This document shows positions 6,201 to 42,498 of a stretch of DNA of 64,000 bases, piece after piece. Position numbers and translations under genes: made by a program. Within the stretch, counting starts at the first letter, position 1; every line of letters begins with the position of its first letter. Source of the stretch: a virus (taxonomy: Duplodnaviria > Heunggongvirae > Uroviricota > Caudoviricetes); IMG/VR virus record IMGVR_UViG_3300033069_001366, positions 47,108 through 111,107 of that record; one strand, given 5' to 3'. The notes under the pieces are model-generated. The model made no database searches. It saw nothing but the letters and a program-made list of their open reading frames with translations, and was not told the origin of the DNA.

Positions 6201-9200
6201 TCTAATTTTACAGCATTGAAATTACTTCTCCATTTTGCTAATTTTTTATTAATACCTCTTCTATTCAGTTCACCTACAGAAGCTACTAATTTATGTTTAT
6301 CAGGATTACGATCATAGTCTACAAATAATTCATAGTTAGTAATATGAGGTAAACTCATAATATTTGTAAATGAATTAATAAATGCAAAGTTTTCAGCATT
6401 ATCAATTTTAGATGATAATGTTTCTAAATCATTAGCAATGAATCTTGCCTGAGGGAATTTTTTAACAAATGCCTCTGATTTAAGTACAAGAATCATATCT
6501 TCAATTGTCCTAGTGTTCTTTAACATTTCTTTTACGTTATTGAACATTGTTTTGGAGTCAACTAATTCTTTAAGTCCTAATTCATTATATTTAAATACAA
6601 AATTTCCATTACTATCAATAGAATCAACTTGAGGTAAAGAAAGAAAATAATCTTTTATTTGCTTGGATGCTTTATCAAAAGCATCCTCATCATTAGCCCC
6701 TTTATTATATGTTGAAGTTTTTTTACTTTCAGTTTCTGAACCTATTTCGTCCATATCTCCATCAATCACTTCTATAAATGTATCATCGAGTTCATTAACT
6801 TCCTTTTCAATATCTTGAATAGTTTTATCTTCTAAAGGAGTAGGATTATTTACAATAATATCACGAAGAGCCTGTATAGAAGACCTTGATAAGTATGCAT
6901 CATAGAATATATTAAAGTTGTTTTCCTCTAAGAGATTATCCATCTCTTTAGCAGTATTTATTCTTTGTCTAACATAATCTATGTTTAAACCATTAATTTT
7001 AGCTGTTCTATTGACTATACTTTCTTCATCATTATTAATAGCATCCATATAGTAAGTATACTTACTTTCAGGATAACTAAATTCTTTTAGTATTTTTTCG
7101 TGAGCATCTTGTAAAGCTCTTCTTACATTACTTTTTAAAGTTTCAGGTCTTTTAAGAACTCTTAAGAAATTAGGAGCTAATCCCATTTTCCTAAGTAGAT
7201 CCGAAACAATACCATCTACAGATTTTATATATAAAGGTATTCTAGAAGGAAGAATAATGTTGTTACCATCCCTATCATAAATCCCTGCATTTAACCCACT
7301 AAACATTACATTAGATACAGACCTAGTATATTTTTCAATAGAGCCATTATAAAGATCATTAAAATATCTTTCTGCTAATGGTCTATAATTAAAAATAAAT
7401 TTAATAAAATCCCAAAGTCTTTGGAAAATACCTTTTATACCTTTATATTTTTCAGGATTTTTAGGGAAACTATATGAAGCAGGATCTTTAGCAAATCTCA
7501 TAAACTCATATGCTAAAAATTCTTCTATTTCCATAAAGGTAGAATCCTTTGTATTTCTTGCATTACCTTTTTCATCAATATAAGGAATAGCTTCTTTTTG
7601 AATAGATGTATATAAAATATTCTTCTGTTCTCTAGTTAAGTATAACTGAGAAAATTCATGCCATCCTTCATGATAAGCCACACCATCTAGGAATCTTTTA
7701 TAGAAAGTTGTACCTTGAGTAGTCCAATAAGCAGCAGTTTTATCATGAACCATTGCAGACAATCTGTACTTAAACTTACCTTTAAACATTCTCTGAACAT
7801 GTTCTAATTGAGGTTTCATTTTCCCCCAATCAATCTCCTCATATCGGTTATTGAAAACCATTTCTAAAGGTTCAACCTCATCTTTATTTCCAAATGTTGG
7901 TTGTTCAGGAATACCAGTATTATTTTCGTCAATCTTAATAGTAGCCTCACGTATACTTTCATATGAAGAAGCTATATTTAGCTGACTTATAGTAAAATCA
8001 TAAGCATAAGTTATTCCTAATACAGTTTTACCTCTGTATATATCTGGTAGATCAGATTCTTTTAAATCTATATAATCTACATTTAAATTACTTGGTGCAA
8101 CAGGTAGTAAATTATTATCATTTTGTGCTTTTAATACAGTAGTATATGTAAAATTAATAAGAGTTGAAATAGGGTCTACACTGAACCCTGCTTTCTTTAA
8201 AGACTCTCTATAAATATGAAGCTGAGTAGCGTAATTCTCAAGTTTTGTTATATTACCATATTTTCCAGGTTTTGTAAGTTTATCTGAAGTTACCTTTACA
8301 TCAAATACTTTTACATTTCCATTTTTATCAATACCTATAACATCCACCTCACCATGCGTAAATCTTTCTGTATTAAATTCCATAAATGTTTTTACTGCAG
8401 GGATAAGGTAATACTCGTCAGATAACTGGTCTATTATATTTTGAAAGTTTTTAATATACCTAGTCAAAGTATCTGCAGTCATTATAGAGCTAAGTTTAAC
8501 TTTAGAGTTACCTACTATAAACTGGGTATCTAAATTTGGAATTTCTCCATTAGTTACCATCTTAAATATTTCATCTACTGCAGTACCTAAATTTATATAA
8601 ATATTAGGATCAAGTGATTTTATTTCTTCAAAAGGTCTAACTATATTACTAGCACGGAATCTTGCCTTACCAGCTTTATTTGCAAAAGTTTGAGCTTGTT
8701 TATGATAAGTTTTAATTTTGTTAGCAACCTCAGTTTGTATAGTAGTTCTGATTATTTCTTTCTTCTCTTCTACTTTTACATAGTTTTCCATTAAAACCTT
8801 CTTAGGCATTTGCTGTCCATCTTCAAGCTCAATAGTATTACCTTTAATAGAAGATACTCTTATTTTTATACTTGGATCTTTTTTAAGTTGATATAGACCT
8901 ACTTCTAGGTTATCTTCATTTACTCCTGAGGTAGGCTCTTTTACATTCTGTACAGATATTAAACCATCTTCATTTAAATCAAGCTTAAAAAGAAGTCTTT
9001 TATTGATTTTAACAAATCTAGTATCACTAGGTCCCACTTTTGCTTTTATAGCTCCTGACCTAAAGTTATTATATAAGAAATTTTGTGCTGAGATTGTTGC
9101 ATTATTACTTAAAGGAATCTTAAGTTCAAATGTATCAAAAAGTCCTCTTGAGTAGTTTATTTCCATATCCCATAAACCACCCCTTCCAGGAACTGATGTA

Positions 9201-12200
9201 TTAAATTTTATTTCAATATTTCCATCACTATTAAAGTGTATATTGGCATATTTTGAATAAGCAAATGTTCTAAGAAAACTAAAGAATTCAAGATATTCAT
9301 CAGAGTTTTCAAATAGTTTATTTCCTTTATATTCATCTTCTAAACGGAGAACTCCTTTATCACTTAAAACTTGAATTGCTCCATATAATCTAGTATCGCT
9401 AGTAATTTTTTCACCATTATCAAATACCATCTCTCTTAGAGATGTTCCTTGAAGTGGGATGTATAATTTAGAAGGTATATCATATATATAAGGTCTACCA
9501 ATCTTAATTCTTTGTGTTAAAGAACCATCATTATTTGGACCCGAATCCCATGAACCTCTTACATAATCTACAGTATATCCATCTATTTTTACATCAAAGT
9601 CCTGTTCTGTAATATCATTATCATCAACCATTTGTTGAACAGTTCTCATGTTCTCCCACTTAGCTCCACCAGAGGCAAAGCTATTATCTTCTAGATTTGA
9701 TGTAAGAAGTCTTCCTGCAAGTATATACCCAACTGTTCCTAAAATAGGAACTTTATTATGTAAGGCTTCATAAAGAAGTGTCTGAGGATCTTTATCAGAT
9801 TTAAATCCTGATTTAATAGAACCTGGCTTTTTTGTAATTTTACTACTTCTAGATATGTTTAAATTAGCTTTTGTAAATAATTCAAACTCAAATCTAAAAC
9901 CATGTATCGTACCCTCTTCTTTTTCTACAATATCACCTTTATCATTAAAATAAAGATAATTACCTTGTTCATCAGCAAGAAAAGCAACTATTTCAGGGAT
10001 AGTAGTAAACTTAGTTTCCAGACTAAATTTCTTATTTTCATCTGTAAGAAGTTCGAATTTAAGTTTTATAGGTTGTGGATTTTCAGCTATTTTTTCTAAA
10101 ATATAATGCTGTTTTCTTGCTAGTTTATCAGATTCAGTAGTAAGACCACCACCTTCTGCTAACTCTTGAGGGTTTACAGTAACAGTTGCTATTTCCCCTT
10201 GCTGTCTTGATAAATCAACAAAGTGACTGATTATATTTTCTTCGCTATCTTTTTGAGGGAACTCAAAGAAATCCTTATCTCCATCAGAAGGAGGTATATT
10301 TATTGAGTCATTATCTCCTACTTCAGGAGTATCCTCTAAAGGTTCTGCTTTTTTAAATTCTTCAATTTTACCATCTTTTGCAATATCCTCTGGAGATTTT
10401 CCTGCAGGAGGGATATTATTTATAAACCTTTGGAACTCGTCCTTTACTATTTTAGGGACATCTTCGTTTTTAATTGGATTTATTTGCTCATTTTCATCTT
10501 CAATCCAGAAAAGGTCTGGTTCATCCTTAAAGACTGCATATGTTTGATTGTTATACTTTATATCATAACTATCTCCTACGTCTTCAATTTTTACTTCTGG
10601 TTTAGATTCAGGAGCTTTTTCTTTAGTTCCATAAATATCTTTATAAGCCTGACTATTCTTTTCTCCCTCAGAAGGTTCAGGTAATAAATCTTCATTAAAT
10701 ATAGTAGAAATAGCCTTTCTTACAACTGCAGGGTTGGCAAGTTTTGGATATTCTTTTTGTAGATACCCTCTTACAAATCCTTTATCCATATTTCCTACAG
10801 CTTGTTCTAATTGGTCAGCAGTATCTTTATCATTTGAATCTAAAGCATTAATAAATGTCTTTAATGTATTTTCATCAGGGTTTATCTCAGGGGTTTCTTC
10901 TTTAGTAGGTTCTTCTTGAGTCTGAGGTTGTTCTTCAGCAGTTTGTAATTTCTCTTCTGCTTTTTTTAAATCTTCTTCAGCTTGTTCTTCTTTCTCTTTA
11001 CTTTTAGCAAATTCTTTTGCAAGAGGAACTAAGAAGTTTGCAATTTGATCATTAAATCTAATGTATTTAGTATTACCTGTAGCTAAAAAATTATTCAGAT
11101 CTAAATTATCCTGATAATTCTTTTGATATTTTAGATAATCAATTAAATCATCTCTTTTAGACCTATTAAAATCTTCAACTCTCCTTGATAAAGGAGCTGT
11201 ATTTTCCCAAGAACCTTGGGTTTTTATAGAAGCTTCTACATAACCTTGAATTTCATCTGCAAGTTCTTCAATAGGATATTGCTTTTTTTCAACTAGTGTT
11301 TTTATATTATCTAATCTACTAAGTGCCTCTTCAATATAATTTTTTCTATCTTCATTAGTTTCTATTTGTAATCTCTTAGTTAAATTATCTATTAAAGGTT
11401 TAGTGTTACCTAAAAAGAAAATATCCTCTAAGAATGAATAATCTGCCTTAGAGTTTAAGTCATAAGGATCAGATGATAAAGATTTATCATTTAATTTAGA
11501 TAAAATCTTCTTAGCTTCTTTAGCTGCATTTAACATGTTTGCTTGAGAAAAAACAGAAGCTTTATGCATTTCTGTTAATCCAATCATAGCTATCTGATGA
11601 AGATTAAATTCTCCATATATTTCCTGTAGCTCATTAAATATAGCAGGATCTAAATTATCTACATCTACCTCACCTTTATCATTTTTAGGAAGAGTTAGAA
11701 GAAAACTATCATACTTATCTTTTGCGTTACTATATGCAGTAGCTGCTACTTCAAAGTCAGATTGAATAAGCTTCTTTTGATTCTCGAATATTTTCTCGAA
11801 TTCTTTGCTGTTTTCTTGTAAATTTGAAGAAAAGTTCTTAATAGAAGACATTAATTGTTCCTGAGACTCAGGAGTTAAATATTCCTCTTTATCAATTTGC
11901 AGGGTATTAGCAAGTGTTTCAAAATCCATACTTGCTAAATTTTTCATCTTCTCAATCTGTAAATCTATTTTACCTGTTTGTAATCCATTATATAGGAATC
12001 TTAAAAGTTGAATATTTTGAGCATTTTTTAAATTAAAAATGTCATTTTTATCAATAAATTTACCAGCAACATATTGAGTTCTTCTATCTTTTATAAAATC
12101 TAAAAACCCATCTGTTTTAAATATATCTGCTATACCTTGAGCATTTAGAAATGCTGCAGTTTTCTTAAGATTTGCTATGTATCTTTCCTTTTGGATTTTA

Positions 12201-13804
12201 TCCATTCCAAGACCAAAAGCCTTGTTAAGAAAGTTTTCTTTATATTGAGGAACACCATCTATTTCAACTTTATTACCTTGTTCATCAACAGCTTGTTTTG
12301 GTCTTGCTAAAATATCAAAAGGTTTTCTGATATGTTGAAAAATAGCACCTGTAGCTAAACCTGCAGTAAATTCTTTAAGACCTTCGTTACTCAGTACATA
12401 ATCAAATCCTGCACCTAAAGATCCTAATAAATCGCTATCTTTACCTTGATAAATATCTTTATAATAATCAGTTACAGATTTAGTAACTAATGCCTGATAA
12501 GATTCTTCTACACCTTCCCATGAGGTATTTTTTAAACCAGAACCAACTGCCATTAAAGCCCCTTTTATTCCTTGCCTCTTTACAGGCTCTTCTACTGCTG
12601 CTTCTAAACCTTTAACAACAAGTTTAGCCTCATTCTTGCTTATTCCTAGAATTCTACCAAGACTTGTAGCAGCAAGTTTTTCAAATGATTTAGGAGCAAC
12701 CATATTACCAAACTGTACAAAGTTACTTGCCATTAAAAATGGTGTCTCAAATTGAATAGTCCTTCTAGCAATATTATCACCAGCAGCATTAATTCTTTTT
12801 AATTCTTCTGAATTAGGGAGCCTTCCATTCTTTCTAAAAAAGTCTTGTGTCTGGGATTCTACAAAATCATTTTTTGCCATTGCTCCTTCAAGAGTTGACT
12901 CAGATAAAGCACCATTCATTATTCTATATCCCTGACCTATTCCTTGTAGTGTTTTTCCTATATTTTTAGCAGCTATACCACCTTTTATAGTATTATAAAT
13001 TTTCTTAATATTATAATAATCTGATATTGCCTTATATGCAGTTCTCGCATTTTTGAATAAAGCTGGAACTGCACCAATTCCCTCTGTTGCAGCAGATATT
13101 GCTGCAGTTTCAGTAAGTGCTGCTCCAATAGTACCTAATGTAAAACCAATAGATTGTCCTGCTTCTTCCCAATAGTCACCTCTATATAATTCATACCATT
13201 TAGTAGGTTTATCTGTTTTATAATCAGGATACAAATCTTCTAGTGCTTCCATTCCTTTTACATACTCTTGGAATCTAGGTTGGTTTGCTAAAACAGCTAA
13301 ATCAAGTTTATGTACGTTAGATAAAACATCTGCATATTCCATGAAATAATTTCCATATTGAAACTTAGTAGTATTCCACATTTTTGCGAATACACTTTGT
13401 AAAGATTCAAATGAAGATTCATGAAAATCATATTGAGCATCCATTATATCATTTGGTAGCTCTGGATTAAACCCTACTTTTGCATAAAGCTCTGGGTCTC
13501 TCTCATATCTTGAGCTTTGTTTAGCACTATAACCTCTAAACATTAGAGGTTTGGAAGGTGATGGTTTGAACGTAGGATTAGACATTACATCTGATAATAT
13601 CTTCAATGTATCAGGATTAGTCTTATCAAGAGATAGACTTACTGCATCTTTTACATTAGATGGAGTAATTTCCTCACCTGATAATCTACCTAAAATATTA
13701 TTATACTCCTCTAAACCTGGAGGTATAGGAAGCTTTGATGGTAAATCTTCTGGCATCACAACATTAAGAGGTGAGCCTACTGAACTATCAATTGGATTTG
13801 GCAT
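218..13804 (-). CDS. Giant multidomain virion protein (4528 aa), candidate crAss-like virion-packaged RNA polymerase with a beta-prime-like DPBB domain.
   Basis: The ORF is 13.6 kb and uninterrupted. The motif GSDFDIDK lies at about residue 3630 (plus about 2898-2920) and resembles the NADFDGD-type catalytic Asp triad of two-barrel RNAPs. It sits at the end of a block of large virion proteins. Confidence 0.6.
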   Translation of the reverse strand: MPNPIDSSVGSPLNVVMPEDLPSKLPIPPGLEEYNNILGRLSGEEITPSNVKDAVSLSLDKTNPDTLKILSDVMSNPTFKPSPSKPLMFRGYSAKQSSRYERDPELYAKVGFNPELPNDIMDAQYDFHESSFESLQSVFAKMWNTTKFQYGNYFMEYADVLSNVHKLDLAVLANQPRFQEYVKGMEALEDLYPDYKTDKPTKWYELYRGDYWEEAGQSIGFTLGTIGAALTETAAISAATEGIGAVPALFKNARTAYKAISDYYNIKKIYNTIKGGIAAKNIGKTLQGIGQGYRIMNGALSESTLEGAMAKNDFVESQTQDFFRKNGRLPNSEELKRINAAGDNIARRTIQFETPFLMASNFVQFGNMVAPKSFEKLAATSLGRILGISKNEAKLVVKGLEAAVEEPVKRQGIKGALMAVGSGLKNTSWEGVEESYQALVTKSVTDYYKDIYQGKDSDLLGSLGAGFDYVLSNEGLKEFTAGLATGAIFQHIRKPFDILARPKQAVDEQGNKVEIDGVPQYKENFLNKAFGLGMDKIQKERYIANLKKTAAFLNAQGIADIFKTDGFLDFIKDRRTQYVAGKFIDKNDIFNLKNAQNIQLLRFLYNGLQTGKIDLQIEKMKNLASMDFETLANTLQIDKEEYLTPESQEQLMSSIKNFSSNLQENSKEFEKIFENQKKLIQSDFEVAATAYSNAKDKYDSFLLTLPKNDKGEVDVDNLDPAIFNELQEIYGEFNLHQIAMIGLTEMHKASVFSQANMLNAAKEAKKILSKLNDKSLSSDPYDLNSKADYSFLEDIFFLGNTKPLIDNLTKRLQIETNEDRKNYIEEALSRLDNIKTLVEKKQYPIEELADEIQGYVEASIKTQGSWENTAPLSRRVEDFNRSKRDDLIDYLKYQKNYQDNLDLNNFLATGNTKYIRFNDQIANFLVPLAKEFAKSKEKEEQAEEDLKKAEEKLQTAEEQPQTQEEPTKEETPEINPDENTLKTFINALDSNDKDTADQLEQAVGNMDKGFVRGYLQKEYPKLANPAVVRKAISTIFNEDLLPEPSEGEKNSQAYKDIYGTKEKAPESKPEVKIEDVGDSYDIKYNNQTYAVFKDEPDLFWIEDENEQINPIKNEDVPKIVKDEFQRFINNIPPAGKSPEDIAKDGKIEEFKKAEPLEDTPEVGDNDSINIPPSDGDKDFFEFPQKDSEENIISHFVDLSRQQGEIATVTVNPQELAEGGGLTTESDKLARKQHYILEKIAENPQPIKLKFELLTDENKKFSLETKFTTIPEIVAFLADEQGNYLYFNDKGDIVEKEEGTIHGFRFEFELFTKANLNISRSSKITKKPGSIKSGFKSDKDPQTLLYEALHNKVPILGTVGYILAGRLLTSNLEDNSFASGGAKWENMRTVQQMVDDNDITEQDFDVKIDGYTVDYVRGSWDSGPNNDGSLTQRIKIGRPYIYDIPSKLYIPLQGTSLREMVFDNGEKITSDTRLYGAIQVLSDKGVLRLEDEYKGNKLFENSDEYLEFFSFLRTFAYSKYANIHFNSDGNIEIKFNTSVPGRGGLWDMEINYSRGLFDTFELKIPLSNNATISAQNFLYNNFRSGAIKAKVGPSDTRFVKINKRLLFKLDLNEDGLISVQNVKEPTSGVNEDNLEVGLYQLKKDPSIKIRVSSIKGNTIELEDGQQMPKKVLMENYVKVEEKKEIIRTTIQTEVANKIKTYHKQAQTFANKAGKARFRASNIVRPFEEIKSLDPNIYINLGTAVDEIFKMVTNGEIPNLDTQFIVGNSKVKLSSIMTADTLTRYIKNFQNIIDQLSDEYYLIPAVKTFMEFNTERFTHGEVDVIGIDKNGNVKVFDVKVTSDKLTKPGKYGNITKLENYATQLHIYRESLKKAGFSVDPISTLINFTYTTVLKAQNDNNLLPVAPSNLNVDYIDLKESDLPDIYRGKTVLGITYAYDFTISQLNIASSYESIREATIKIDENNTGIPEQPTFGNKDEVEPLEMVFNNRYEEIDWGKMKPQLEHVQRMFKGKFKYRLSAMVHDKTAAYWTTQGTTFYKRFLDGVAYHEGWHEFSQLYLTREQKNILYTSIQKEAIPYIDEKGNARNTKDSTFMEIEEFLAYEFMRFAKDPASYSFPKNPEKYKGIKGIFQRLWDFIKFIFNYRPLAERYFNDLYNGSIEKYTRSVSNVMFSGLNAGIYDRDGNNIILPSRIPLYIKSVDGIVSDLLRKMGLAPNFLRVLKRPETLKSNVRRALQDAHEKILKEFSYPESKYTYYMDAINNDEESIVNRTAKINGLNIDYVRQRINTAKEMDNLLEENNFNIFYDAYLSRSSIQALRDIIVNNPTPLEDKTIQDIEKEVNELDDTFIEVIDGDMDEIGSETESKKTSTYNKGANDEDAFDKASKQIKDYFLSLPQVDSIDSNGNFVFKYNELGLKELVDSKTMFNNVKEMLKNTRTIEDMILVLKSEAFVKKFPQARFIANDLETLSSKIDNAENFAFINSFTNIMSLPHITNYELFVDYDRNPDKHKLVASVGELNRRGINKKLAKWRSNFNAVKLDKETGTINDELTLNKLKTDTSLKNLVYNIDGILRLNPFFPFSEVADEKEFFRYIGIELSEEFWDSELSSTARELFNFMIKNFQIYRSYLDTVMANVSDLVDFQKIASNEDKEAAYSRKKAIRSFLMGHTFDKINNKEVNPVYITKIDNPIGFFKDRKYIDFKGSVYEIYSLMKNFSDLIKIDSRFAIENLNSSYVSGDGKTKYPAYEKSLITERTHFLNSVRNVKDFDFQEELSPINPNKKTYLQRTLFYKLMFDKDGNRNNYWFGKKETFQKVKIELSDLSSFRFKQSGLYQTVHPNDLNEHDRVFFDILMFLESGKFEIPRAADSSTAFAFGLNNYGSRQHGIGQKEVYMAITPAEASMTKDEITGKKLQQIFGDYFLMELEKIQYYKKNESKYKDKIKFNIFDGIIENPGEILDKIGKKSIDDIFTEHKEGVFKNLAEYFTNIINELEKGNDGVNLKNLSSRQISILKNVHVRGANVETVTNDDTSKKMSEQEIEETKKQTATVGSDVNTALPSIAKLYVLNHFINRVEYYSWVLGDAGSFDNVFKRGKASTNTGTQIIITPSINKELNKLSEKSLGALKGFKQKDFRKLTSWTIKEMKLNSPYIASIDRNMENYRKQTGSDIKIETEQYNDIKVGNGQAKMSLDSYRIMKTLHNAWSPSDENEYNRQVAIYRKHHGLYEEGESGDLLRKQDEELIKTPFKGFNPLKMSHTGPYIFTDESHPLETSFDKMSLEVLIPEFLLGTGYGDEAVMEQLIENNGDYVKFQTVEKGVKGEVINFFKEDGTHDKKNGILHSGNASVFLRSNFKTQLSTDQFKKTNIVGIQQKNSLFDVKYTKELLSDPVEYAKILKNEENYHQAFENLMYYKSQVLYNQIGVRIKNGKATLISEERFSSFLKKMAKQGKLPNNVLDALDLNEQTGEYNLDFSKLFSRARLMKSIGGIIDEETRILRLPGTAAIQVTAAGKSLFRNASVEELQQYRETGERLQYYDFVYDKEGNIVSTSPMGIKITLQGDFKNLLNLEYNGKKIKTLDNLNKAIKNKEWKAKHMDKLMVYAYRIPTNNNNFIDVGEIMEFLPESAGNIIITPPEYIVKTGSDFDIDKSNLIFPSIRKDGSLYDSKTKARNINQIFADINAITSDISEYSRMQSEIANFNRQFTKDLKQLDKFEETLMQVILFDLSQIDKDNFDRVYNRSNGIFNEIVNNYKEEIELDDTLSSYMRTLKTLQEKISEYSQKPRKNVDKRFEGLLEELSVYYKSNSNDVLKSSIDTVLNKHYYPLLVNPSSTKNMRAVIEKIQKLTKREIIEPNALTGSQKISYLIEQKIHRDYNVHQGSLGLYAIMRRSFSMLNFAGLKANDTWKYAGMTKDYTMKISNPLKQDNDNSFGAYSEDLMFIANIWDEFMSLTIDLQADPIYSIAGINDINKKIFIYLVSKGVSVENVLLFLNQPILIELYETFRKGRAFYGSVYKLSHAIYFTANSNNIPIMFEGKNMNDTTTTTYATLEDGRILVELNPSVRRPGAVLSSQFDQATKFSKEEMEESFTKPNKELQADILKYFAIADTEAAMFSGLLYNLSADRIKDVNIYSIEDQEIALDKIKNSGFFNIEGIEKLTNQRSIYSIFNPSKTIKVLSDIFYNKSFGAGYQTMIRNILSKAFERKTVKTEMIDVIENDFLEYIYKNYYNLDIEIYDPISNTRKHISEYLVQDPNKVIDLKNKSEDKLKTLSERKMSYNFSKYFIQNIYNISKKEDFVSYGQKLKALIKRYPSLEKIQFVKSLKEENKSPMFNFDNETSRNPLDNYVASNLFFERDDNDVNNLNTLVEEFKNLMTFNPVHFLLPEEFSPEDRINISTFFTELAYLSLYQSGASNVSDNFSDLLPTDFWMFFIDTAINNYKEEMGELPGQVLSEQDQLLKAMKKRNEMKMFALMFIENNKRYNWNVYKMMYGIKDLFNPESEQDSKKRRAKEKDIQFFHNFTSGKNYSIEFNKSRFDISDQQIPC

Positions 13805-16484
13805 TTTTCTTTTTTATATATTCTGTAATTGAATTTTGTAATTTTAACATCTTATCTGCAAAGACACTATTAAAATTCGCAATATTATCATCATAGTATC
13901 TTTCTACCACCTCTTTTAAAGATGAAGTTCCTGGATAATTTGATATAATCATTGCTTCTATCTGAGCCTCTGTAAAATATGGATCTTCTTTATCCTTGGC
14001 AGCAGGATTAATTATCTTATTTGATAAGAAAATCTTTGGCATTATATTATTTTCTGAACCCATATTTACAACCTTTACTTGAGTTCCTAACTTTGGTAAG
14101 TCTTGTATTGCAATGACAGCACCTGGAAAAGCCACATGTTTTAAATTTCCTTGTTTTGACATCCATTTTGTATCTATAAATTTTCCATCAGGTTGAACAT
14201 ATAACTTAAAGTTTTTATATTCATTTACAGCATTTTTATTATCTTTAGTTTCATTTATTGCAAATGTAAGATAAGGATAAGTTTCATCAATTCCTGGAGA
14301 ATGTATTGTATATGATACGACATCTTTTTGATTACTTTTTAAGAAATCTACAAAATCTTCAGAACCTTTATATTTACCTTCTGTTTCTCTTATATAATTT
14401 GCATCAATGGTAGCCATTTGTAAAATACGATTACTTTGAGCATCATCTCCTTTGCCTGGACCAAATTGGAAAGTTTCCATTGCGGTATTAGCTCTTCTTG
14501 CACCTATTGAGAGATATAAACCTCTCATTTTATTATCTACTACTTCTTTGAAAGATTCAAATGAGGGAATTATAAAATTTGAGTAAATTATATCTGATTC
14601 TCCTCTTACTGTTTTTGCAGATTTTTCTCTTCTTACTGTTTTTACATATGTTGGATTGTTTTGGTATTTTTCCCAAGCTTTTTTAATTTCATCATCACTA
14701 ATAAGAGTTTTGCCACCATCTGTAAAGTATCTAGATAACTCTCCTAAATATGTAGGAGTATCTCTTAAAACCTGAGTATGTATATTTAATCTATGTTTTT
14801 GTGCGTCATTTATATGTCTTTGTAAGACTGCTGCTGTTTCCTGACCTTTTGGTTTACCATAAATATCTGTTACTACATCTGACGTAAAGTCAGGATTTGC
14901 TAACATCATTCTTGATAAATCTGAATATAGTTGAGGAACTGTTTTCTTTTTAAATGCATTTTTATAATCTTCTACTGTAAGGTTTATAGAAGATGGTTGC
15001 ATTTTTCCATCAGCGACCATTTTATTTGTAAAATTAAATGCAAATTTTGCAAGCTCATCTACTTCCTCATCAATAAGAGCATGATTATCTCCGATAGTTC
15101 TTGTGTCCATTTCTTTCTCAGAAAGTCTATCAAGTGCTGCAGGACTCAGTAATGTTGATATAGTTGCTTTTTTAAGTTCTATATCATTGTTATTAAGAAG
15201 ATAATCTTTTGCAGCCTTTACTTTTTGATCATTTGATTCTAATGCTGCATCTTGAGGTCTAGCTTCTGGAACTACACCAGTTCCTTGGAAAGGATTTTCT
15301 AGTTGTTTTTTTTCTCTTTCGTTTTTTTCTCTTGCTATTTTAAGATTTTCTAAAGCAATCTCATAGTTTTGTTGTGCTATAAGGGCTTTATTTTCTTCAT
15401 AATCAATATCAATATCTTCATACGCAAGATTATCAGATATTTTTTGTATACCTGTTGCTAATCCTAACTTTTCTACAAGTTCTCTATTCTTAGCTAGATT
15501 ATTAACATCAGAAAGACCACTCAGTGTTTGAATATATTGAGCTTTATCAGTATTTGCTTTTGTTATTTTACCAGTTAGATTCTTCAGTGATTCCTCATAA
15601 GTTGATATTTCACTAGGATCAGTAGCCCTGCTTTTTGCGTAAGATAGTTTTGCTTCTGCTATTTTTAAATCATTAATATGAGTATCATAGAAATTACTAG
15701 CAAGTCCTTGATAATAATTATCAATATTCTCAGGATTTGCAGTAAGCTGGCTATAATAGTTATTTCTAGCCTCAACTCTAAGTTGTTCTTTAAGTTGTGG
15801 GGAACCCATTTCATCAAGCAAAGCCTGAAGTCTTATTTTATCTACTCCTGATTTAGTTGTTTTAATAAGAGTATATGGATTACCTGATTCTGACCAATCT
15901 ACAATACCTCTTTCTTTTGCAATACTCATTATATTTTTCAACTCACCACTTATATCTACATAAGGTGTATATCTTGATACTTGTCCAAGTTTTTGCCAAC
16001 CATCTGCTCTATTTAATGCAGATGTAAGTAAACTTTTTTCAAAGAGAATATTCTGCATAGAAGCAGGATTGTAATTTTTACCACCTTTTTCATCTCTTGA
16101 CCTTAAAGCTTTAGAATACTCAGTGTCAAGAGTCTTAACAGTCATATCTTCTCCTGCAATATTATTATCATCAAATAAGGGTTTAAGTAGATTCAAACCT
16201 TGTCTTTGTACAGAAGGATCACCTAAGTTCATTGAATTTAGCTTAACTAGTTGACTTTCAGCATTTTTCATGAAGTCATCTCTTCTTTTTTTATTATCGT
16301 CTGTAACAAGATTTAAATCACGAGCATCTTGATACCTATTTTTTACTTTCAAAGCACCTTGGTCCCAATATTGGTTTTGAGCTACAAGGGATTTAAAAAT
16401 ATCATTTACAGGCAACTGGTAAGGGCGAAATGTATTCGCACTTTGATAGTCATTCTGTACATATGGGGATGTTGAAACTGCCAT
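13788..16484 (-). CDS. Large virion-associated protein (898 aa), function unknown.
   Basis: Long ORF whose stop overlaps the start of the giant ORF by 17 nt, suggesting coupling. It has coiled-coil-rich segments. Confidence 0.55.
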   Translation of the reverse strand: MAVSTSPYVQNDYQSANTFRPYQLPVNDIFKSLVAQNQYWDQGALKVKNRYQDARDLNLVTDDNKKRRDDFMKNAESQLVKLNSMNLGDPSVQRQGLNLLKPLFDDNNIAGEDMTVKTLDTEYSKALRSRDEKGGKNYNPASMQNILFEKSLLTSALNRADGWQKLGQVSRYTPYVDISGELKNIMSIAKERGIVDWSESGNPYTLIKTTKSGVDKIRLQALLDEMGSPQLKEQLRVEARNNYYSQLTANPENIDNYYQGLASNFYDTHINDLKIAEAKLSYAKSRATDPSEISTYEESLKNLTGKITKANTDKAQYIQTLSGLSDVNNLAKNRELVEKLGLATGIQKISDNLAYEDIDIDYEENKALIAQQNYEIALENLKIAREKNEREKKQLENPFQGTGVVPEARPQDAALESNDQKVKAAKDYLLNNNDIELKKATISTLLSPAALDRLSEKEMDTRTIGDNHALIDEEVDELAKFAFNFTNKMVADGKMQPSSINLTVEDYKNAFKKKTVPQLYSDLSRMMLANPDFTSDVVTDIYGKPKGQETAAVLQRHINDAQKHRLNIHTQVLRDTPTYLGELSRYFTDGGKTLISDDEIKKAWEKYQNNPTYVKTVRREKSAKTVRGESDIIYSNFIIPSFESFKEVVDNKMRGLYLSIGARRANTAMETFQFGPGKGDDAQSNRILQMATIDANYIRETEGKYKGSEDFVDFLKSNQKDVVSYTIHSPGIDETYPYLTFAINETKDNKNAVNEYKNFKLYVQPDGKFIDTKWMSKQGNLKHVAFPGAVIAIQDLPKLGTQVKVVNMGSENNIMPKIFLSNKIINPAAKDKEDPYFTEAQIEAMIISNYPGTSSLKEVVERYYDDNIANFNSVFADKMLKLQNSITEYIKKKNAKSN

Positions 16485-34378: not shown

Positions 34379-35208
34379 TTATATTTAAACTTTTTAATAG
34401 GTGAGTAACTTTGTAATTCATTATAAACTAGTTCTAAAAGATTTACATCCTGTTTACAATAATCTATCATTTTTTTCATAGATACTTTACAATTCTTTAG
34501 TACAATATTTTTCCATAAATCTGGTTCAGTTTTAATTTTTTCACCAAGACCTAGGAATTGTCCCATATAATCAAGTTTATTTGAATTAAATTTAAAACCT
34601 GCTCTTGCCATTTTTAAAGTATCTATAGAGTTAAACTTTGGAGAGAGTTCAATTCTATGATATAAACATCTAGTTCTCAACCATTTAATATCAAAAGAAT
34701 CTCCATTTTGAGTAACTGTTTCATCTGCAGAATCTATGATTTTAGCAAATTTTACTAACATTTCATAATCATCTCCATCTTTCCATTGTAAAGATTCTAC
34801 TTTATCAGAATCTGACCATTTCCAACAAATACATATGACCGCCCTTTCTTGTATAATATTTTCATGTGAAAGTTTTATATCTGAACCAATTCTCCAAGAA
34901 GTTACAATATTTGGACTAACCTCTATGTCAAAGAATAGTTTTCTTTTAGGTCTTTCTCTTTCTTTATGTATTAAATTGTAGGTTTCTAATAAGGCAAGAT
35001 CTGATGTAGAATGAATAATTTTATCAGCTTCTCTAAGCTCAGATTGAACACTTTTTACAAGTTCTAGTTCTTTTTGTGCTTCTTTTATAGTTTTAGCAGT
35101 AGTTTTTGGAAGACTTTTCCAAATTGCCTCTAATGTAACATGTGGAGATTTTTTAAGATACCCCTTACGAACCAAAATAAATTTTTCTATTTCCTTTTTA
35201 CTTATCAT
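34363..35208 (-). CDS. DEDDy-type 3'-5' exonuclease (DnaQ/RNase D-like).
   Basis: Exo I LFFDIEVS, Exo II TQNGDSFDIKWL and Exo III YCKQDVNLL motifs are present in the canonical order. Confidence 0.65.
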   Translation of the reverse strand: MISKKEIEKFILVRKGYLKKSPHVTLEAIWKSLPKTTAKTIKEAQKELELVKSVQSELREADKIIHSTSDLALLETYNLIHKERERPKRKLFFDIEVSPNIVTSWRIGSDIKLSHENIIQERAVICICWKWSDSDKVESLQWKDGDDYEMLVKFAKIIDSADETVTQNGDSFDIKWLRTRCLYHRIELSPKFNSIDTLKMARAGFKFNSNKLDYMGQFLGLGEKIKTEPDLWKNIVLKNCKVSMKKMIDYCKQDVNLLELVYNELQSYSPIKKFKYKIPLK

Positions 35209-35830
35209 ATAATTTTTTTATTATTTTCCAATCAAATCCTTTATAAGACTTTCTCTTGCCCTGTATATAATTTCTAGCAGCAGAAGGATAATAACCATTC
35301 TTCTTGGCTTCTTCAAAACTCCAGGTATTTAAAATTTTACCAGTACTTTTACATATTTGTTGAATAAGTTTTTTATTTTTTTCAGATCTTTTAGAGATCA
35401 TAGATTGAGGCTGTTTTTTATTTTTCCAATAGCAATTTCTTTTTAATGAATATGATATTTTCTCTTTATGATCTTCAGAAAATTTTTTACCTTTATTTGA
35501 AATATTTGGAACTGGTAATTCTAATGGAATAGCCATATTATAACCTTTATCTTTTAAATGCGAAGAGTATAATTTAATAAAGAAATTTTCTAATATTACT
35601 GTATGTTCTTCTTTACATATTGCCAATATTTCAAATGTAAAGAAATTCTCGCCATATTTATTAAATGACAACTGAAGATGTGTATTGAAATGAATATTAT
35701 TTTTTAATTTTAAAAAATGGGACCTTTTTCTACTATATAATGTTTTTGTAGTACTACCGATATATACCTTATTATTTTTTAAGTTTGTAATTTTATAAAC
35801 TCCACATCTTTTTAAATCTGAATCTATCAT
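35198..35830 (-). CDS. GIY-YIG homing endonuclease (210 aa).
   Basis: N-terminal GVYKITNLKNNKVYIGSTTKTLYSRKRSHF is the GIY-(10-11)-YIG...R...H signature. The C-terminus is basic, as expected for a DNA-binding region. Confidence 0.7.
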   Translation of the reverse strand: MIDSDLKRCGVYKITNLKNNKVYIGSTTKTLYSRKRSHFLKLKNNIHFNTHLQLSFNKYGENFFTFEILAICKEEHTVILENFFIKLYSSHLKDKGYNMAIPLELPVPNISNKGKKFSEDHKEKISYSLKRNCYWKNKKQPQSMISKRSEKNKKLIQQICKSTGKILNTWSFEEAKKNGYYPSAARNYIQGKRKSYKGFDWKIIKKLYDK

Positions 35831-35929
35831 AATACAAAATTATGAAAAAGTATTCATATAAAAAAATAATTTTTTACATTAATTATTGAAGTAAACAATA
35901 TTTAATCATTAGATGATAAAAAGAAAAAG

Positions 35930-36002
35930 TGGGATAGGGAGTACTCGAAACTCACGAGCCTACGTTTTACAGACGTTGCTAAGTGCCCTGCTTTCTATCC
36001 CA
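35930..36002 (-). tRNA. tRNA, probable Tyr(GUA), class-I-like with imperfect stems.
   Basis: Acceptor GGGATAG/CTATCCC. Anticodon arm ACGT-CTGTAAA-ACGT. T-loop TTCGAGT. Confidence 0.45.
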
Positions 36003-36011
36003 TTGATTATG

Positions 36012-36096
36012 AGGAGAGTACAAGATTCGAACTCTTGCGACTTTTACATCTTCTGTTTAGCAAACAGAACAGTTTACCAATTCCTGCAACTCTCCA
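36012..36096 (-). tRNA. tRNA-Ser(GCU), class II.
   Basis: Acceptor GGAGAGT/ACTCTCC. Anticodon arm TCTGT-TTGCTAA-ACAGA. Long variable arm. T-loop GTTCGAA. Confidence 0.65.
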
Positions 36097-36100
36097 TTTG

Positions 36101-36187
36101 AGGCAAGGGTGGGATTCGAACCCACGGGACTTTTACATCACACAGGCTTTCAAAGCGAGGCTCTTATGACCACTTGAGCACCTTACC
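36101..36187 (-). tRNA. Class-II tRNA, probably Ser(UGA).
   Basis: Acceptor GGTAAGG/CCTTGCC. T-arm GTGGG-TTCGAAT-CCCAC. Anticodon loop TTTGAAA, but the anticodon stem has two mismatches. Confidence 0.5.
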
Positions 36188-36191
36188 ATTG

Positions 36192-36265
36192 TAGTCTAGG
36201 TGAGATTCGAACTCACAAACATAAAATTTTAAGTTTTATAGCTTTCCCAGTTAGCTTACTAGACC
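36192..36265 (-). tRNA. tRNA with anticodon UAA (Leu-type) but class-I architecture.
   Basis: Acceptor GGTCTAG/CTAGACT with discriminator A. D-arm AGCT-AACTGGGAA-AGCT. Anticodon arm TAAAA-CTTAAAA-TTTTA. Variable loop of 5 nt. T-arm GTGAG-TTCGAAT-CTCAC. Confidence 0.6.
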
Positions 36266-36270
36266 ATTTG

Positions 36271-36356
36271 TAGGGATGGAGAGATTCAAACTCTCACGCC
36301 AGTTTATTAACACTAGATCCTAAGTCTAGGGTGTCTATCAATTCCACCACATCCCC
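36271..36356 (-). tRNA. tRNA-Leu(UAG), class II.
   Basis: Acceptor GGGGATG/CATCCCT. Anticodon arm CTAGA-CTTAGGA-TCTAG. Long variable arm. T-loop TTTGAAT. Confidence 0.65.
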
Positions 36357-36361
36357 AAAAA

Positions 36362-36390
36362 GAAAAACCCCACCAAAATTGGCAGGGTTT
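36362..36390 (-). terminator. Terminator-like hairpin with a U-tract on the minus strand.
   Basis: In minus sense: CCCTGCC-AATTTTGG-TGGGG followed by TTTTTCT. Confidence 0.35.
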
Positions 36391-36489
36391 TATTGTAAAC
36401 AATATAATTATTTTTAAACAATATAATCCCTGCTCTTACTTTGTAAGAGATACGATAAGGAACTATATAGTTTGTTATTTTTCATGATG

Positions 36490-38892: not shown

Positions 38893-38965
38893 TTGACTTG
38901 GTGAGTAACGATCTCACTACCTTTACATTATCAGTGTAACGCTCTACCATTTGAGCTACAAGTCA
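38893..38965 (-). tRNA. tRNA-Ile(GAU).
   Basis: Acceptor TGACTTG/CAAGTCA. D-arm GCTC-AAATGGTA-GAGC. Anticodon arm TTACA-CTGATAA-TGTAA. T-arm GTGAG-ATCGTTA-CTCAC. Confidence 0.65.
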
Positions 38966-39501
38966 TTATTAATTATTTGAAAATGTATCTCTGCATGACA
39001 ATTTTTACACACTAAAATACATTTATCTAATTCAGACTTTAAGTTTTGAAAACTTTTAGTTCCACCACTTATAGTATAATCTTTTTTATTAGGATCAATA
39101 TGATGAAATTCTAAAGCAGCAAGACATTTATTATATCCACATTTACAACATTTCCCTCCTTTATATTCTACACATTGTTCTTTTACTTTTAACCTATAGC
39201 CTTTTTTTCTTTTGTCAGCTTTTTGTTTAATTTGAAGTTTTGTAAGTTTTCTTGCTTTTAATTTTTTACCTAATAATTGTCTTGATACTTTAAATTTATC
39301 AGCAACACCTTTAAAAGATAATCCTTGATCATAAGCATCCTGATATATTTTTAATAATTCAGGTGTATATTTATCAACTTTGTTAATAAATTTTGAACAA
39401 TGATAACTTACTGTTGATTTAGAGCATCTTAACTGTTTAGATATTTCAGCAGAACTAAATCCTTTATGAAAAAGTTCCAAAATTTTTGTCTTTTTAACCA
39501 T
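38956..39501 (-). CDS. HTH-HNH homing endonuclease (181 aa).
   Basis: N-terminal HTH-like segment (SSAEISKQLRCSKSTVSYH). C-terminal EFHHIDPNKKD...LVCKNCHAEIH HNH motif with Cys pairs. Confidence 0.65.
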   Translation of the reverse strand: MVKKTKILELFHKGFSSAEISKQLRCSKSTVSYHCSKFINKVDKYTPELLKIYQDAYDQGLSFKGVADKFKVSRQLLGKKLKARKLTKLQIKQKADKRKKGYRLKVKEQCVEYKGGKCCKCGYNKCLAALEFHHIDPNKKDYTISGGTKSFQNLKSELDKCILVCKNCHAEIHFQIINNDL

Positions 39502-39561: not shown

Positions 39562-39638
39562 TACTGATGATTAGATTCGAACTAATGTGTAACCAACTAC
39601 CTTTTCAACTGGATATAAGCCAGAGAGGATACATCAGC
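39562..39638 (-). tRNA. tRNA-like element, non-canonical and a possible pseudo-tRNA; identity unresolved.
   Basis: Acceptor GCTGATG/CATCAGT and a good T-arm ATTAG-TTCGAAT-CTAAT. The body has only one clean stem-loop (CTGG-CTTATAT-CCAG) and no standard D-arm. Confidence 0.3.
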
Positions 39639-39994: not shown

Positions 39995-40459
39995 TTATTT
40001 ATATACAGAAGGGTGTCTTATGACGTGATCTGCAGCCTTACATGCTATCATTTCTCCAGTTTTAAAAGTTGAGTTTGCATAACCTTTAAACGCAGAAACT
40101 AATTTAGAACTTATAGTTTTCTTTGCATCTGCAAAATCAAATTCCAAAGCTTTAACAGCAATAGGGATATCTTGAGTCAAAGTATCATGTATTTCAAGAG
40201 TTCTTAATCCTTCTCCATATAATCTTGTAAATTGACTAAAATCTTTTATTCTTGATACAACTTCTTTTAAGTAAATAAAATGAGCACCTCTTCTTCCATA
40301 TCTATAAGCTATACAAGTTACATAAACGGTATCTTGTCCCCAGTCTTGACTATCTGTTCCGATAGATATTTCTAGATGATTGAATTTTTCAATCTGATCT
40401 AGCGTATGTTCGATGATATTTACTATTTTACCATCTTGTGTCCGAAAATATTTTTCCAT
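39995..40459 (-). CDS. Hypothetical protein (154 aa) embedded in the tRNA array.
   Basis: ORF with no motif I can assign; a segment LEISIGTDSQDWG is noted. Confidence 0.45.
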   Translation of the reverse strand: MEKYFRTQDGKIVNIIEHTLDQIEKFNHLEISIGTDSQDWGQDTVYVTCIAYRYGRRGAHFIYLKEVVSRIKDFSQFTRLYGEGLRTLEIHDTLTQDIPIAVKALEFDFADAKKTISSKLVSAFKGYANSTFKTGEMIACKAADHVIRHPSVYK

Positions 40460-40754: not shown

Positions 40755-40828
40755 TAGAGGATAGGAATTCCGAGATCCTGACTTCTTGTTTGTAATACAA
40801 GCACTCTGCCAACTGAGTTAATCCTCTA
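40755..40828 (-). tRNA. tRNA-Val(UAC).
   Basis: Acceptor AGAGGAT/ATCCTCT. Anticodon arm CTTGT-ATTACAA-ACAAG. T-arm imperfect. Confidence 0.55.
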
Positions 40829-41883: not shown

Positions 41884-42022
41884 TGTGGCAATGAATGGAT
41901 TCGAACCATCTATTTTATAACTTAGTCGCTTAAATTATTCAATCTTTTGTGTCAGGTAGACAGAGGACGATTCTGCATGATGTCCACATCCCAAATGTGG
42001 CGGCTTACCAATTAGCCCACTA
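41884..42022 (-). tRNA. Interrupted tRNA-Pro(UGG)-like gene. The 5' half (acceptor, D-arm, anticodon arm) and the 3' half (T-arm, acceptor) are separated by an insertion of about 70 nt; it may be a pseudogene or an intron-containing tRNA.
   Basis: 3' half: GATGG-TTCGAAT-CCATT plus CATTGCC. 5' half: GGTAGTG (which pairs with CATTGCC through two G-U wobbles), D-arm GGCT-AATTGGTA-AGCC, and a perfect anticodon arm CCACA-TTTGGGA-TGTGG. Confidence 0.3.
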
Positions 42023-42498
42023 CCTGTTTTATGCTTTATTGTATGACAATTACAACAAAGTAGTTGTAAGTTATCAAGATTATTATTTTTTCTATTTCTA
42101 TCTTTATGATGAACTTCTAAAGCTAAAGGGTTATCAAAATTACATTCCTCACATTTTAATTCCTTCATTGATTTTATCTTTATCCATCTATAACTACCTA
42201 TACCAGTTTTATATTGAGGATGATTTTCCCATTTTTTAAAAAGAGTATTGTTTTTTATAGTCGAACACTTTTTACTACAATATAAATTTCCTGTTTTAGA
42301 CCTTTTAATTCTACTAGGAGTAACTATCAAATCTTTACCACAATTTGCACATTTATAATTATATTCTTTTGCTTTTCCTATATGCTTACATTCATTTGAA
42401 CAATAAATTTTCCAATCTTTTTTGATACTAAAATTTATATATTTCTCTTCCTTTTCAAATTTAGATTTACAAACAGGACATATTAAACTTACTTTCAT
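41935..42498 (-). CDS. Zn-finger HNH homing endonuclease (187 aa) whose 3' end overlaps the 5' half of the interrupted tRNA-Pro-like gene.
   Basis: Motif EVHHKDRNRKNNNLDNLQLLCCNCH, which is the HNH signature. Multiple CxxC pairs. Confidence 0.65.
   Translation of the reverse strand: MKVSLICPVCKSKFEKEEKYINFSIKKDWKIYCSNECKHIGKAKEYNYKCANCGKDLIVTPSRIKRSKTGNLYCSKKCSTIKNNTLFKKWENHPQYKTGIGSYRWIKIKSMKELKCEECNFDNPLALEVHHKDRNRKNNNLDNLQLLCCNCHTIKHKTGSGLIGKPPHLGCGHHAESSSVYLTQKIE

Follow-up and report, generated by a model that had tools for sequence, protein, structure and literature searches.

Results

Gene content of the window and layout of the tRNA cluster

The window, by which we mean the whole 64,000-nucleotide stretch of phage DNA analyzed here, has a G+C content of ~31% and carries all of its long ORFs (31/31) on the minus strand. 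These ORFs include virion proteins, a DNA-polymerase exonuclease subunit, homing endonucleases, and a CrAss_Ring_2 protein. The window starts with an ORF of 4528 aa (218-13804, minus strand), followed by ORFs of 1954, 1534, 898, and 878 aa; the 1534-aa ORF has a PHROG virion-protein match. The nearest cultured relatives, at ~25% protein identity, are the Cellulophaga phages phi4:1 and phi17:2, a Leptolyngbya phage, and a crAss-like gut phage. The source is a large uncultured AT-rich phage, distantly related to crAss-like and Cellulophaga phages, and its protein relatives suggest that the host is probably a member of the Bacteroidota.

More than 20 tRNAs (20 ARAGORN calls plus extra Rfam matches) are clustered at 36.0-42.0 kb. 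They include a tight array of five tRNAs that runs from Leu(UAG) through Leu(UAA), Ser(UGA), and Ser(GCU) to a Tyr-like element; spacers of 4-5 nt separate the first four. The features of this part of the cluster, with the parts of the Leu(UAA) gene that is our subject, are as follows:

36364..36391, minus strand: terminator-like hairpin (12 pairs and a T run) that immediately precedes Leu(UAG), the first tRNA in the array
36271..36356, minus strand: class-II tRNA-Leu(UAG), 5 nt upstream of Leu(UAA); G1.U72, A73, A15-U48, 17-nt variable region (ARAGORN; Rfam, 51.3 bits; structure parse)
36192..36265, minus strand: type-I (short variable loop) tRNA-Leu(UAA), 74 nt, no encoded CCA, trailer CAAT (ARAGORN, Rfam, sequence)
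36259..36265, minus strand: acceptor stem of Leu(UAA), 5' strand, nt 1-7 GGUCUAG, with a G1.U72 wobble pair (Rfam alignment, structure parse)
36240..36256, minus strand: D arm of Leu(UAA), stem AGCU/AGCU, 9-nt loop AACUGGGAA, with A14, A15, and G18G19 (Rfam alignment, parse)
36227..36233, minus strand: anticodon loop of Leu(UAA), CUUAAAA; the anticodon U34 A35 A36 is at 36231-36229 and reads UUA (and UUG) (ARAGORN, Rfam)
36217..36221, minus strand: variable loop of Leu(UAA), UGUUU, 5 nt; U48 (36217) is able to form an A15-U48 Levitt pair (Rfam, parse)
36200..36216, minus strand: T arm of Leu(UAA), GUGAG UUCGAAU CUCAC (G53 U54 U55 C56 G57 A58 ... C61) (Rfam alignment)
36192..36199, minus strand: acceptor stem of Leu(UAA), 3' strand, nt 66-72 CUAGACU, and discriminator A73 (36192) (sequence, Rfam)
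36101-36187, minus strand: tRNA-Ser(UGA) (ARAGORN, Rfam)
36012-36095, minus strand: tRNA-Ser(GCU) (ARAGORN, Rfam)

The class-II tRNA-Leu(UAG), which the earlier note had placed at 36271-36356, was confirmed there by Rfam, on the minus strand. It has an A, not a G, at position 19 (D loop AAUUGAUAGA). The strong hairpin ahead of it raises a question about array transcription, which could proceed by read-through or from an unrecognized Bacteroidota-type promoter.

The Tyr-like element that ends the array (35928-36001, minus strand) was missed in the window by both ARAGORN and Rfam. Its anticodon loop is CUGUAAA (GUA, Tyr), and it lacks a long variable arm; tRNA-Tyr in bacteria is normally of class II. 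The element is kept in two related contigs described below, L503 (14124-14197, plus strand) and L508 (6009-6080, minus strand), with a column identity of 82%. Nine compensatory pairs distinguish the window copy from that of L503, and the L508 copy receives an ARAGORN call as a 72-nt tRNA-Tyr. This short-arm Tyr-like tRNA may be the more unusual tRNA of the cluster.

Other parts of the cluster are less regular. The tRNA at 40755-40827 (minus strand) scores 46 bits in Rfam and has no ARAGORN call; by eye, it shows the anticodon loop AUUACAA (UAC, Val) and an atypical T loop (CUCGGAAUU region). At 39562-39638 (minus strand), a weak tRNA match whose 30.6 bits are barely over the threshold has a good acceptor stem and T arm with no clear D or anticodon arm, and may be a degenerate tRNA. 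Homing-endonuclease-type ORFs lie amid the tRNAs at 35198-35830, 38956-39501, and 41935-42498 (all on the minus strand; one GIY-YIG, two HNH), and the HNH ORF at 41935-42498 overlaps tRNA-Pro (41952-42026). An RNaseH-like ORF in the cluster (39995-40459) is conserved in L503 and L508. A Pfam scan of 20 window ORFs, all smaller than the five largest, found no synthetase domain.

A complete type-I tRNA-Leu(UAA)

The earlier note had described a class-I tRNA with a UAA anticodon and A73 at 36192-36265, and every element of that description was borne out by ARAGORN, Rfam, and the sequence. ARAGORN called tRNA-Leu(taa) at 36191-36265 on the minus strand. All 71 positions of the Rfam tRNA model RF00005 aligned to exactly 36192-36265 (E = 7e-12), on the minus strand, which the note had left unstated. 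The score of 61.8 bits (gathering score, 29 bits) ranks among the better tRNA scores in the cluster. Read 5' to 3', the gene is GGUCUAG UA AGCU AACUGGGAA AGCU A UAAAA CUUAAAA UUUUA UGUUU GUGAG UUCGAAU CUCAC CUAGACU A. Its stems are of 7, 4, 5, and 5 bp and its anticodon loop is of 7 nt (C32 U33 U34 A35 A36 A37 A38). The near-universal nucleotides U8, A14, G18G19, U33, G53 U54 U55 C56, A58, and C61 are all present in the sequence and the covariance-model alignment, and the ARAGORN fold agrees. The five base pairs of the anticodon stem are all A:U, and in silico the cloverleaf has an energy of -13.3 kcal/mol versus -16.0 for a fold that re-pairs the anticodon arm only. The element is confirmed as a real phage tRNA gene.

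Two other descriptions of the gene were tried and rejected. A canonical class-II tRNA-Leu, with a variable arm of >10 nt that includes a stem, is ruled out by the distance of 5 nt from the anticodon stem to the T stem. Because these 5 nt alone lie between the two stems, there is no spare sequence for a fold with a long arm or for a shifted anticodon register, both of which the earlier note had raised as possible refutations. An ochre suppressor is also ruled out, as a UAA anticodon decodes UUA and not a stop codon; TAA is the stop codon of 25 of the 31 long window ORFs under the standard code.

The codon that this anticodon reads is heavily used. UUA occurs at 37 per 1000 codons, which is 3.7% of all codons and 49% of Leu codons, and it is the seventh most used codon. 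Since UUA is the main Leu codon of the phage, mischarging would damage nearly every protein. Long window ORFs match their homologues at 54-70% identity under the standard code, and there is no sign of altered decoding.

Short-arm Leu tRNAs in other phages and in bacteria

We used the 74-nt gene as the query for a sensitive blastn search of 50,697 phage records. In the matches to annotated phage tRNA-Leu genes, the alignments run from the anticodon arm straight into the T arm, i.e., there is no long arm. Short-arm Leu tRNAs in the records that we fetched include those of Acinetobacter phage vB_AciJM_313 (UAA and UAG, 73 nt), Salmonella phage gmork (UAA, 76 nt with CCA), and Rhodococcus phage Dorin (UAA and CAA). 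Cellulophaga phage phi4:1 (NC_021788) has a 75-nt short-arm Leu(UAG) beside a Leu(UAA) with a shortened arm.

We then turned to patterns of structure, with the caveat that fractions from such pattern-based scans are indicative and not a census. With the pattern CTTAAAA-N14-GTTCGAATC in IMG/VR, 119 of 120 loci among the matches listed carry a short-arm tRNA(UAA). The same loci hold at least 36 further short-arm Leu tRNAs with other Leu anticodons, which the N14 pattern did not select. An independent viral sample was assembled from loci picked by a CAU-anticodon tRNA and not by Leu. Among the matches listed for that sample, 16 of 72 Leu tRNAs (22%) are short-armed, versus 1 of 44 for Ser and 1 of 27 for Tyr (Fisher p = 6e-4).

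The N14 pattern was also run on prokaryotes, with one genome per species. A short-arm tRNA-Leu(UAA) is present in 104 of the 120 prokaryotic loci among the matches listed, and in 89 of those 104, again among the matches listed, it is the sole tRNA within 8 kb. The carriers listed are mostly Actinomycetota (Nonomuraea, Microbacterium, Nocardia, Mycobacterium, Corynebacterium, Kocuria, and others), with some Planctomycetota, cyanobacteria, and others. In the bacterial matches listed, A73 is found in 104/105 and A15-U48 in 103/105. Judged by these sequences, a short-arm Leu tRNA is ordinary, being common in phages and in some bacteria. The earlier note had called such a gene unusual, which does not hold for phages given the 16 short-armed genes among the 72 phage Leu tRNAs listed above. 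Its premise that bacterial Leu tRNAs are class II was too broad, as short-arm Leu(UAA) is chromosomal in many Actinomycetota and a type I tRNALeu of Streptomyces coelicolor is leucylated (see Discussion).

The viral contig IMGVR_UViG_3300037454_000603 (L510, 179 kb) has two CUA-anticodon tRNAs (labeled 'Pyl' by ARAGORN) alongside short-arm Leu tRNAs. The two are candidate amber suppressors, and the contig may come from a stop-codon-recoded phage.

Several more direct searches gave no match: megablast of the tRNA array against the phage collection, tblastn with the adjacent 599-aa ORF, exact and semi-exact patterns of tRNA-Leu(UAA) in viral and metagenome contigs, and one related-loci search by the 599-aa ORF. 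Loci reached via the DNA-polymerase exonuclease ORF belonged to unrelated small Flavobacterium-type phages. Phage T5, checked as an experimental precedent, has as its Leu tRNA a class-II Leu(UAG) only, and our literature search found no paper on short-arm Leu tRNAs in phages.

The tRNA body resembles type-I Leu

We used a classifier that asks what the body of the tRNA resembles when its anticodon is hidden. It consists of position-weight matrices, one for each isotype, that mask both the anticodon loop and the T loop and were built from ~1,100 distinct viral-locus tRNAs parsed by ARAGORN structure, and its leave-one-out accuracy is 76%. The window Leu(UAA) scored +9.8 bits for type-I Leu, and all 20 other classes were negative (Lys -5.7, Met -6.0, Ile -7.3). 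We regard this margin as moderate; the neighboring class-II Leu scored +20.3 for class-II Leu in the same classifier. When the type-I Leu class was withheld, type-I Leu tRNAs scattered about equally among Lys, class-II Leu, Met, and Ile. This scatter implies that type-I Leu is a coherent class and not merely class-II Leu minus the arm. We also considered a mutated anticodon on a body of Val, Phe, or Lys type and rejected it on the strength of the masked classifier together with the cluster's own Val, Phe, and Lys tRNAs.

Individual positions distinguish the class as well. Among the matches listed in the two viral samples, A73 is present in 155/155 and 16/16 type-I Leu tRNAs versus 56-65% of other class-I tRNAs. 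In the viral samples G1.U72 is present in 50-75% of the type-I Leu tRNAs listed versus 9-13% of other class-I tRNAs, and A15-U48 in 73-94% versus 30-35%. The three features occur together in 11 of 16 type-I Leu tRNAs versus 18 of 600 other tRNAs among the matches listed (p = 1e-12), and the window gene has all of them. Its D loop reads GGGAAAG versus a class consensus of GGYAGAG. With a variable loop of 5 nt and a UAA anticodon, the gene falls within type I tRNA-Leu as delimited by a 4-6 nt variable loop plus a Leu anticodon.

Conservation and apparent arm loss in the lineage

The closest relative of the window at the protein level is L503, a 160-kb contig reached via homologues of the 599-aa ORF, which is syntenic with the window at 54-70% protein identity. 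Its short-arm Leu tRNA has the anticodon UAG, not UAA, so that the exact gene does not recur in every member of the lineage. The Leu genes of L503 score below Rfam thresholds. At ~13858-13940 (plus strand) we noticed by eye a degenerate class-II-like Leu(UAA) element; its variable arm is 14 nt long, it lacks G18G19, and its T loop is odd. The element sits inside the 3' end of an HNH-endonuclease ORF and was called by no tool.

A syntenic short-arm Leu(UAA) orthologue, of the kind that the earlier note had suggested seeking in related phages, was found in L508, a 118-kb IMG/VR contig. L508 has a homologue of the RNaseH-like ORF in its tRNA cluster (50% identity), and its tRNA order, with the block Leu(UAG), Leu(UAA), Ser, Ser, Tyr and the CAAT trailer, is as in the window. 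Its Leu(UAA) at 6269-6342 (minus strand) is short-armed. In the comparison of the two sequences, window and L508, standard pairs fill 97.6% of base-pair cells, and both partners have changed in 9 of 21 pairs versus 0-2 in slid controls. These compensatory changes preserve all four helices, and they are consistent with selection on the cloverleaf, for which two sequences provide modest evidence.

Which Leu isoacceptor is short-armed varies between relatives. In the window, UAG is class II and UAA is class I; in L503 and phi4:1, UAG is class I and UAA is class II-like; in L508 both are class I. Such swaps between UAA and UAG would be cheap because the two anticodons differ at one position (36) and LeuRS is blind to the anticodon. 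The 76-nt short-arm Leu(UAG) genes of two further relatives, L505 (3950-4025) and L506 (2689-2764), have D and T arms that are nearly those of the window class-II Leu(UAG). From these arms, the variable arm seems to have been deleted within the phage lineage.

Discussion

The identity rules of leucyl-tRNA synthetase (LeuRS) provide a way to read this gene. E. coli LeuRS requires A73, A15-U48, G18G19, A20a, G18:U55, G19-C56, and U54:A58; the anticodon and the sequence and fold of the long arm are dispensable, and armless minimal tRNAs are still charged (PMC9976931). Of the E. coli-type elements, the nucleotides of A73, U8-A14, and A15-U48 are present in the window Leu(UAA), the pairing being assigned from position. 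All six nucleotides of the elbow contacts G18:U55, G19-C56, and U54:A58 are supplied by its D loop AACUGGGAA and T loop UUCGAAU. The D loop runs G18 G19 G A A, which provides an A after position 20 under one numbering and differs from the GGUAGA of leuZ. The LeuRS of S. coelicolor leucylates a natural type I tRNALeu(CAA), and this acceptance depends on the leucine-specific domain of the enzyme, which is of a Streptomyces-specific kind; the LeuRS of E. coli and that of S. purpurogeneiscleroticus failed to charge the same tRNA, which has C48 (Fan et al. 2019, PMC6614811). Hence, not every bacterial LeuRS takes every short-arm Leu tRNA.

Taken with the classifier result and the combination of A73, G1.U72, and A15-U48, we consider it likely that the window gene is a normal leucine-accepting type-I tRNA for UUA and UUG that would be charged by the host LeuRS; both its charging and its expression are what we infer from sequence. 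The earlier note had left open an altered identity, e.g., charging by a different synthetase, or an A73-dependent LeuRS substrate. The evidence favors the latter, and the former found no support, since the masked body resembles type-I Leu alone and carries a Leu acceptor and core signature. In the sequence of events that we propose, the five tRNAs of the array would be transcribed together, from Leu(UAG) to the Tyr-like element. Host enzymes would trim tRNA-Leu(UAA) and, because no CCA is encoded, would add CCA. A bacterial-type LeuRS of the host would charge it with leucine, and the product would decode UUA (and UUG by wobble), UUA being the top Leu codon of this AT-rich phage.

Two readings would deny the gene this role. 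The tRNA could be the product of an identity switch, in which another class-I body (e.g., Val UAC to UAA, Phe GAA to UAA, or Lys) or a non-Leu synthetase has UUA and UUG read as something else. Its class-I architecture and the single-base anticodon change that could turn a Val or Phe tRNA into UAA speak for the idea, and without its own class the type-I Leu group resembles Lys, class-II Leu, Met, and Ile about equally. Nevertheless, the masked classifier is positive for type-I Leu and negative for Lys, Met, Ile, and the rest, dedicated Val(UAC), Phe, and Lys tRNAs are already encoded in the cluster, and the acceptor and core combination is of the Leu type. Moreover, reassignment of a codon as frequent as UUA would alter nearly every protein, the long ORFs match homologues at 54-70% identity under the standard code, and none of the 20 ORFs scanned has a synthetase domain. 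We therefore regard an identity switch as extremely improbable. That the gene is a decaying, non-functional passenger of the cluster is also very unlikely, although its anticodon stem is weak and there are degenerate members nearby and in the lineage (Val(UAC) at 40755-40827, missed by ARAGORN; the 30.6-bit match at 39562-39638; the Leu genes of L503 below Rfam thresholds). Pseudogene status had been named in the earlier note as a possible refutation; the Rfam score, among the best of the cluster, the complete set of near-universal nucleotides, and the compensatory changes that keep four helices relative to the L508 orthologue all speak against it, and the gene serves the most used Leu codon.

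A further alternative accepts that the short-arm Leu tRNA is functional and proposes that arm loss is adaptive, allowing the tRNA to escape a host defense nuclease, or a host-shutoff nuclease of the phage, that recognizes class-II tRNA-Leu. If true, the phage would keep translating UUA while host tRNA-Leu is destroyed, and the approximately one in five phage Leu tRNAs that are armless, along with the swapping of the short-armed isoacceptor within the lineage, would be explained. Phage tRNAs that evade host anticodon nucleases are documented (PMC10264068), eukaryotic SLFN nucleases are reported to pick type II tRNAs, and arm loss is both frequent in phage Leu tRNAs (22% among the matches listed) and labile within the lineage. 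However, nothing in the window or the host points to such a nuclease, the phage also retains its class-II Leu(UAG), and an escape is not needed to account for a tRNA that is a housekeeping-looking solitary gene in many Actinomycetota. Relaxed constraint is simpler, as LeuRS ignores the arm, and the Ser and Tyr synthetases use it and their tRNAs keep it. The long arm has an established role for SerRS and bacterial TyrRS, and the pattern in which Ser and Tyr tRNAs keep the arm and Leu tRNAs often lose it in phages is predicted by the identity rules, under which LeuRS does not read it. On balance, we think an adaptive origin of the arm loss unlikely.

The reading of the window gene as a leucine-accepting type-I tRNA can be set against several known systems. 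The short-arm Leu tRNAs of cultured phages (phi4:1, vB_AciJM_313, gmork, and Dorin) resemble it in the length of the variable loop (5-6 nt), in the Leu anticodon, in A73, G1.U72, and A14 A15 with U48, and in lying in phage tRNA clusters, often beside a class-II Leu. They differ from it in that they are ~55-75% identical to it outside the loops and some encode CCA, and their hosts belong to three phyla. The type I tRNALeu(CAA) of S. coelicolor likewise has a variable loop of 5 nt and occurs alongside type II tRNALeu in a bacterium with a single LeuRS; in contrast to the window gene, it has a CAA anticodon and C48, and A73 is not an identity element for it (PMC6614811), whereas the window gene has the E. 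coli-type A15-U48 and A73. The host of the window phage is probably not an actinomycete. The chromosomal short-arm Leu(UAA) genes of many Actinomycetota and some other phyla share with the window gene both architecture and loops (UA-GCCC-AAC(U)GGCAGA-GGC, CUUAAAA, a variable loop of 5 nt with U as its last base, UUCGAAU, and A73), but they are GC-rich, solitary, and mostly G1-C72, in contrast to the AT-rich window gene, which has G1.U72 and forms part of a phage array.

Animal mitochondrial tRNALeu(UUR) is likewise type I, with a UAA anticodon and a weak, A:U-rich anticodon stem. For identity it depends on A73 and A14, and its charging proceeds with no long arm (PMC9976931). Unlike the window gene, whose D and T loops are canonical, it is organellar, has its own LeuRS, and has degenerate D and T loops. 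The class-II Leu(UAA) of E. coli, leuZ, shares the UUAAAA type of anticodon loop, G1.U72, A73, A14 A15, G18G19, and U48, and differs in its variable arm (15 nt, versus a 5-nt loop in the window gene) and its D stem (3 bp, versus 4 bp in the window gene).

Type I tRNALeu is already known from animal mitochondria and from S. coelicolor, and short Leu tRNAs are annotated in many deposited phage genomes. A review states that Leu and Ser tRNAs carry a long arm everywhere but in animal mitochondria (PMC9976931), and bacterial type I tRNALeu has been treated as a rare Streptomyces case (PMC6614811). For the window itself, the gene would be an ordinary phage tRNA-Leu that supplies the commonest Leu codon, and it matters little. 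Beyond it, the bacterial spread of short-arm Leu(UAA) is wider than the single Streptomyces case that we found in the literature. Among phages from several host phyla, and likewise in many Actinomycetota, short-arm Leu tRNAs that carry A73 occur frequently, and this frequency may be under-appreciated.
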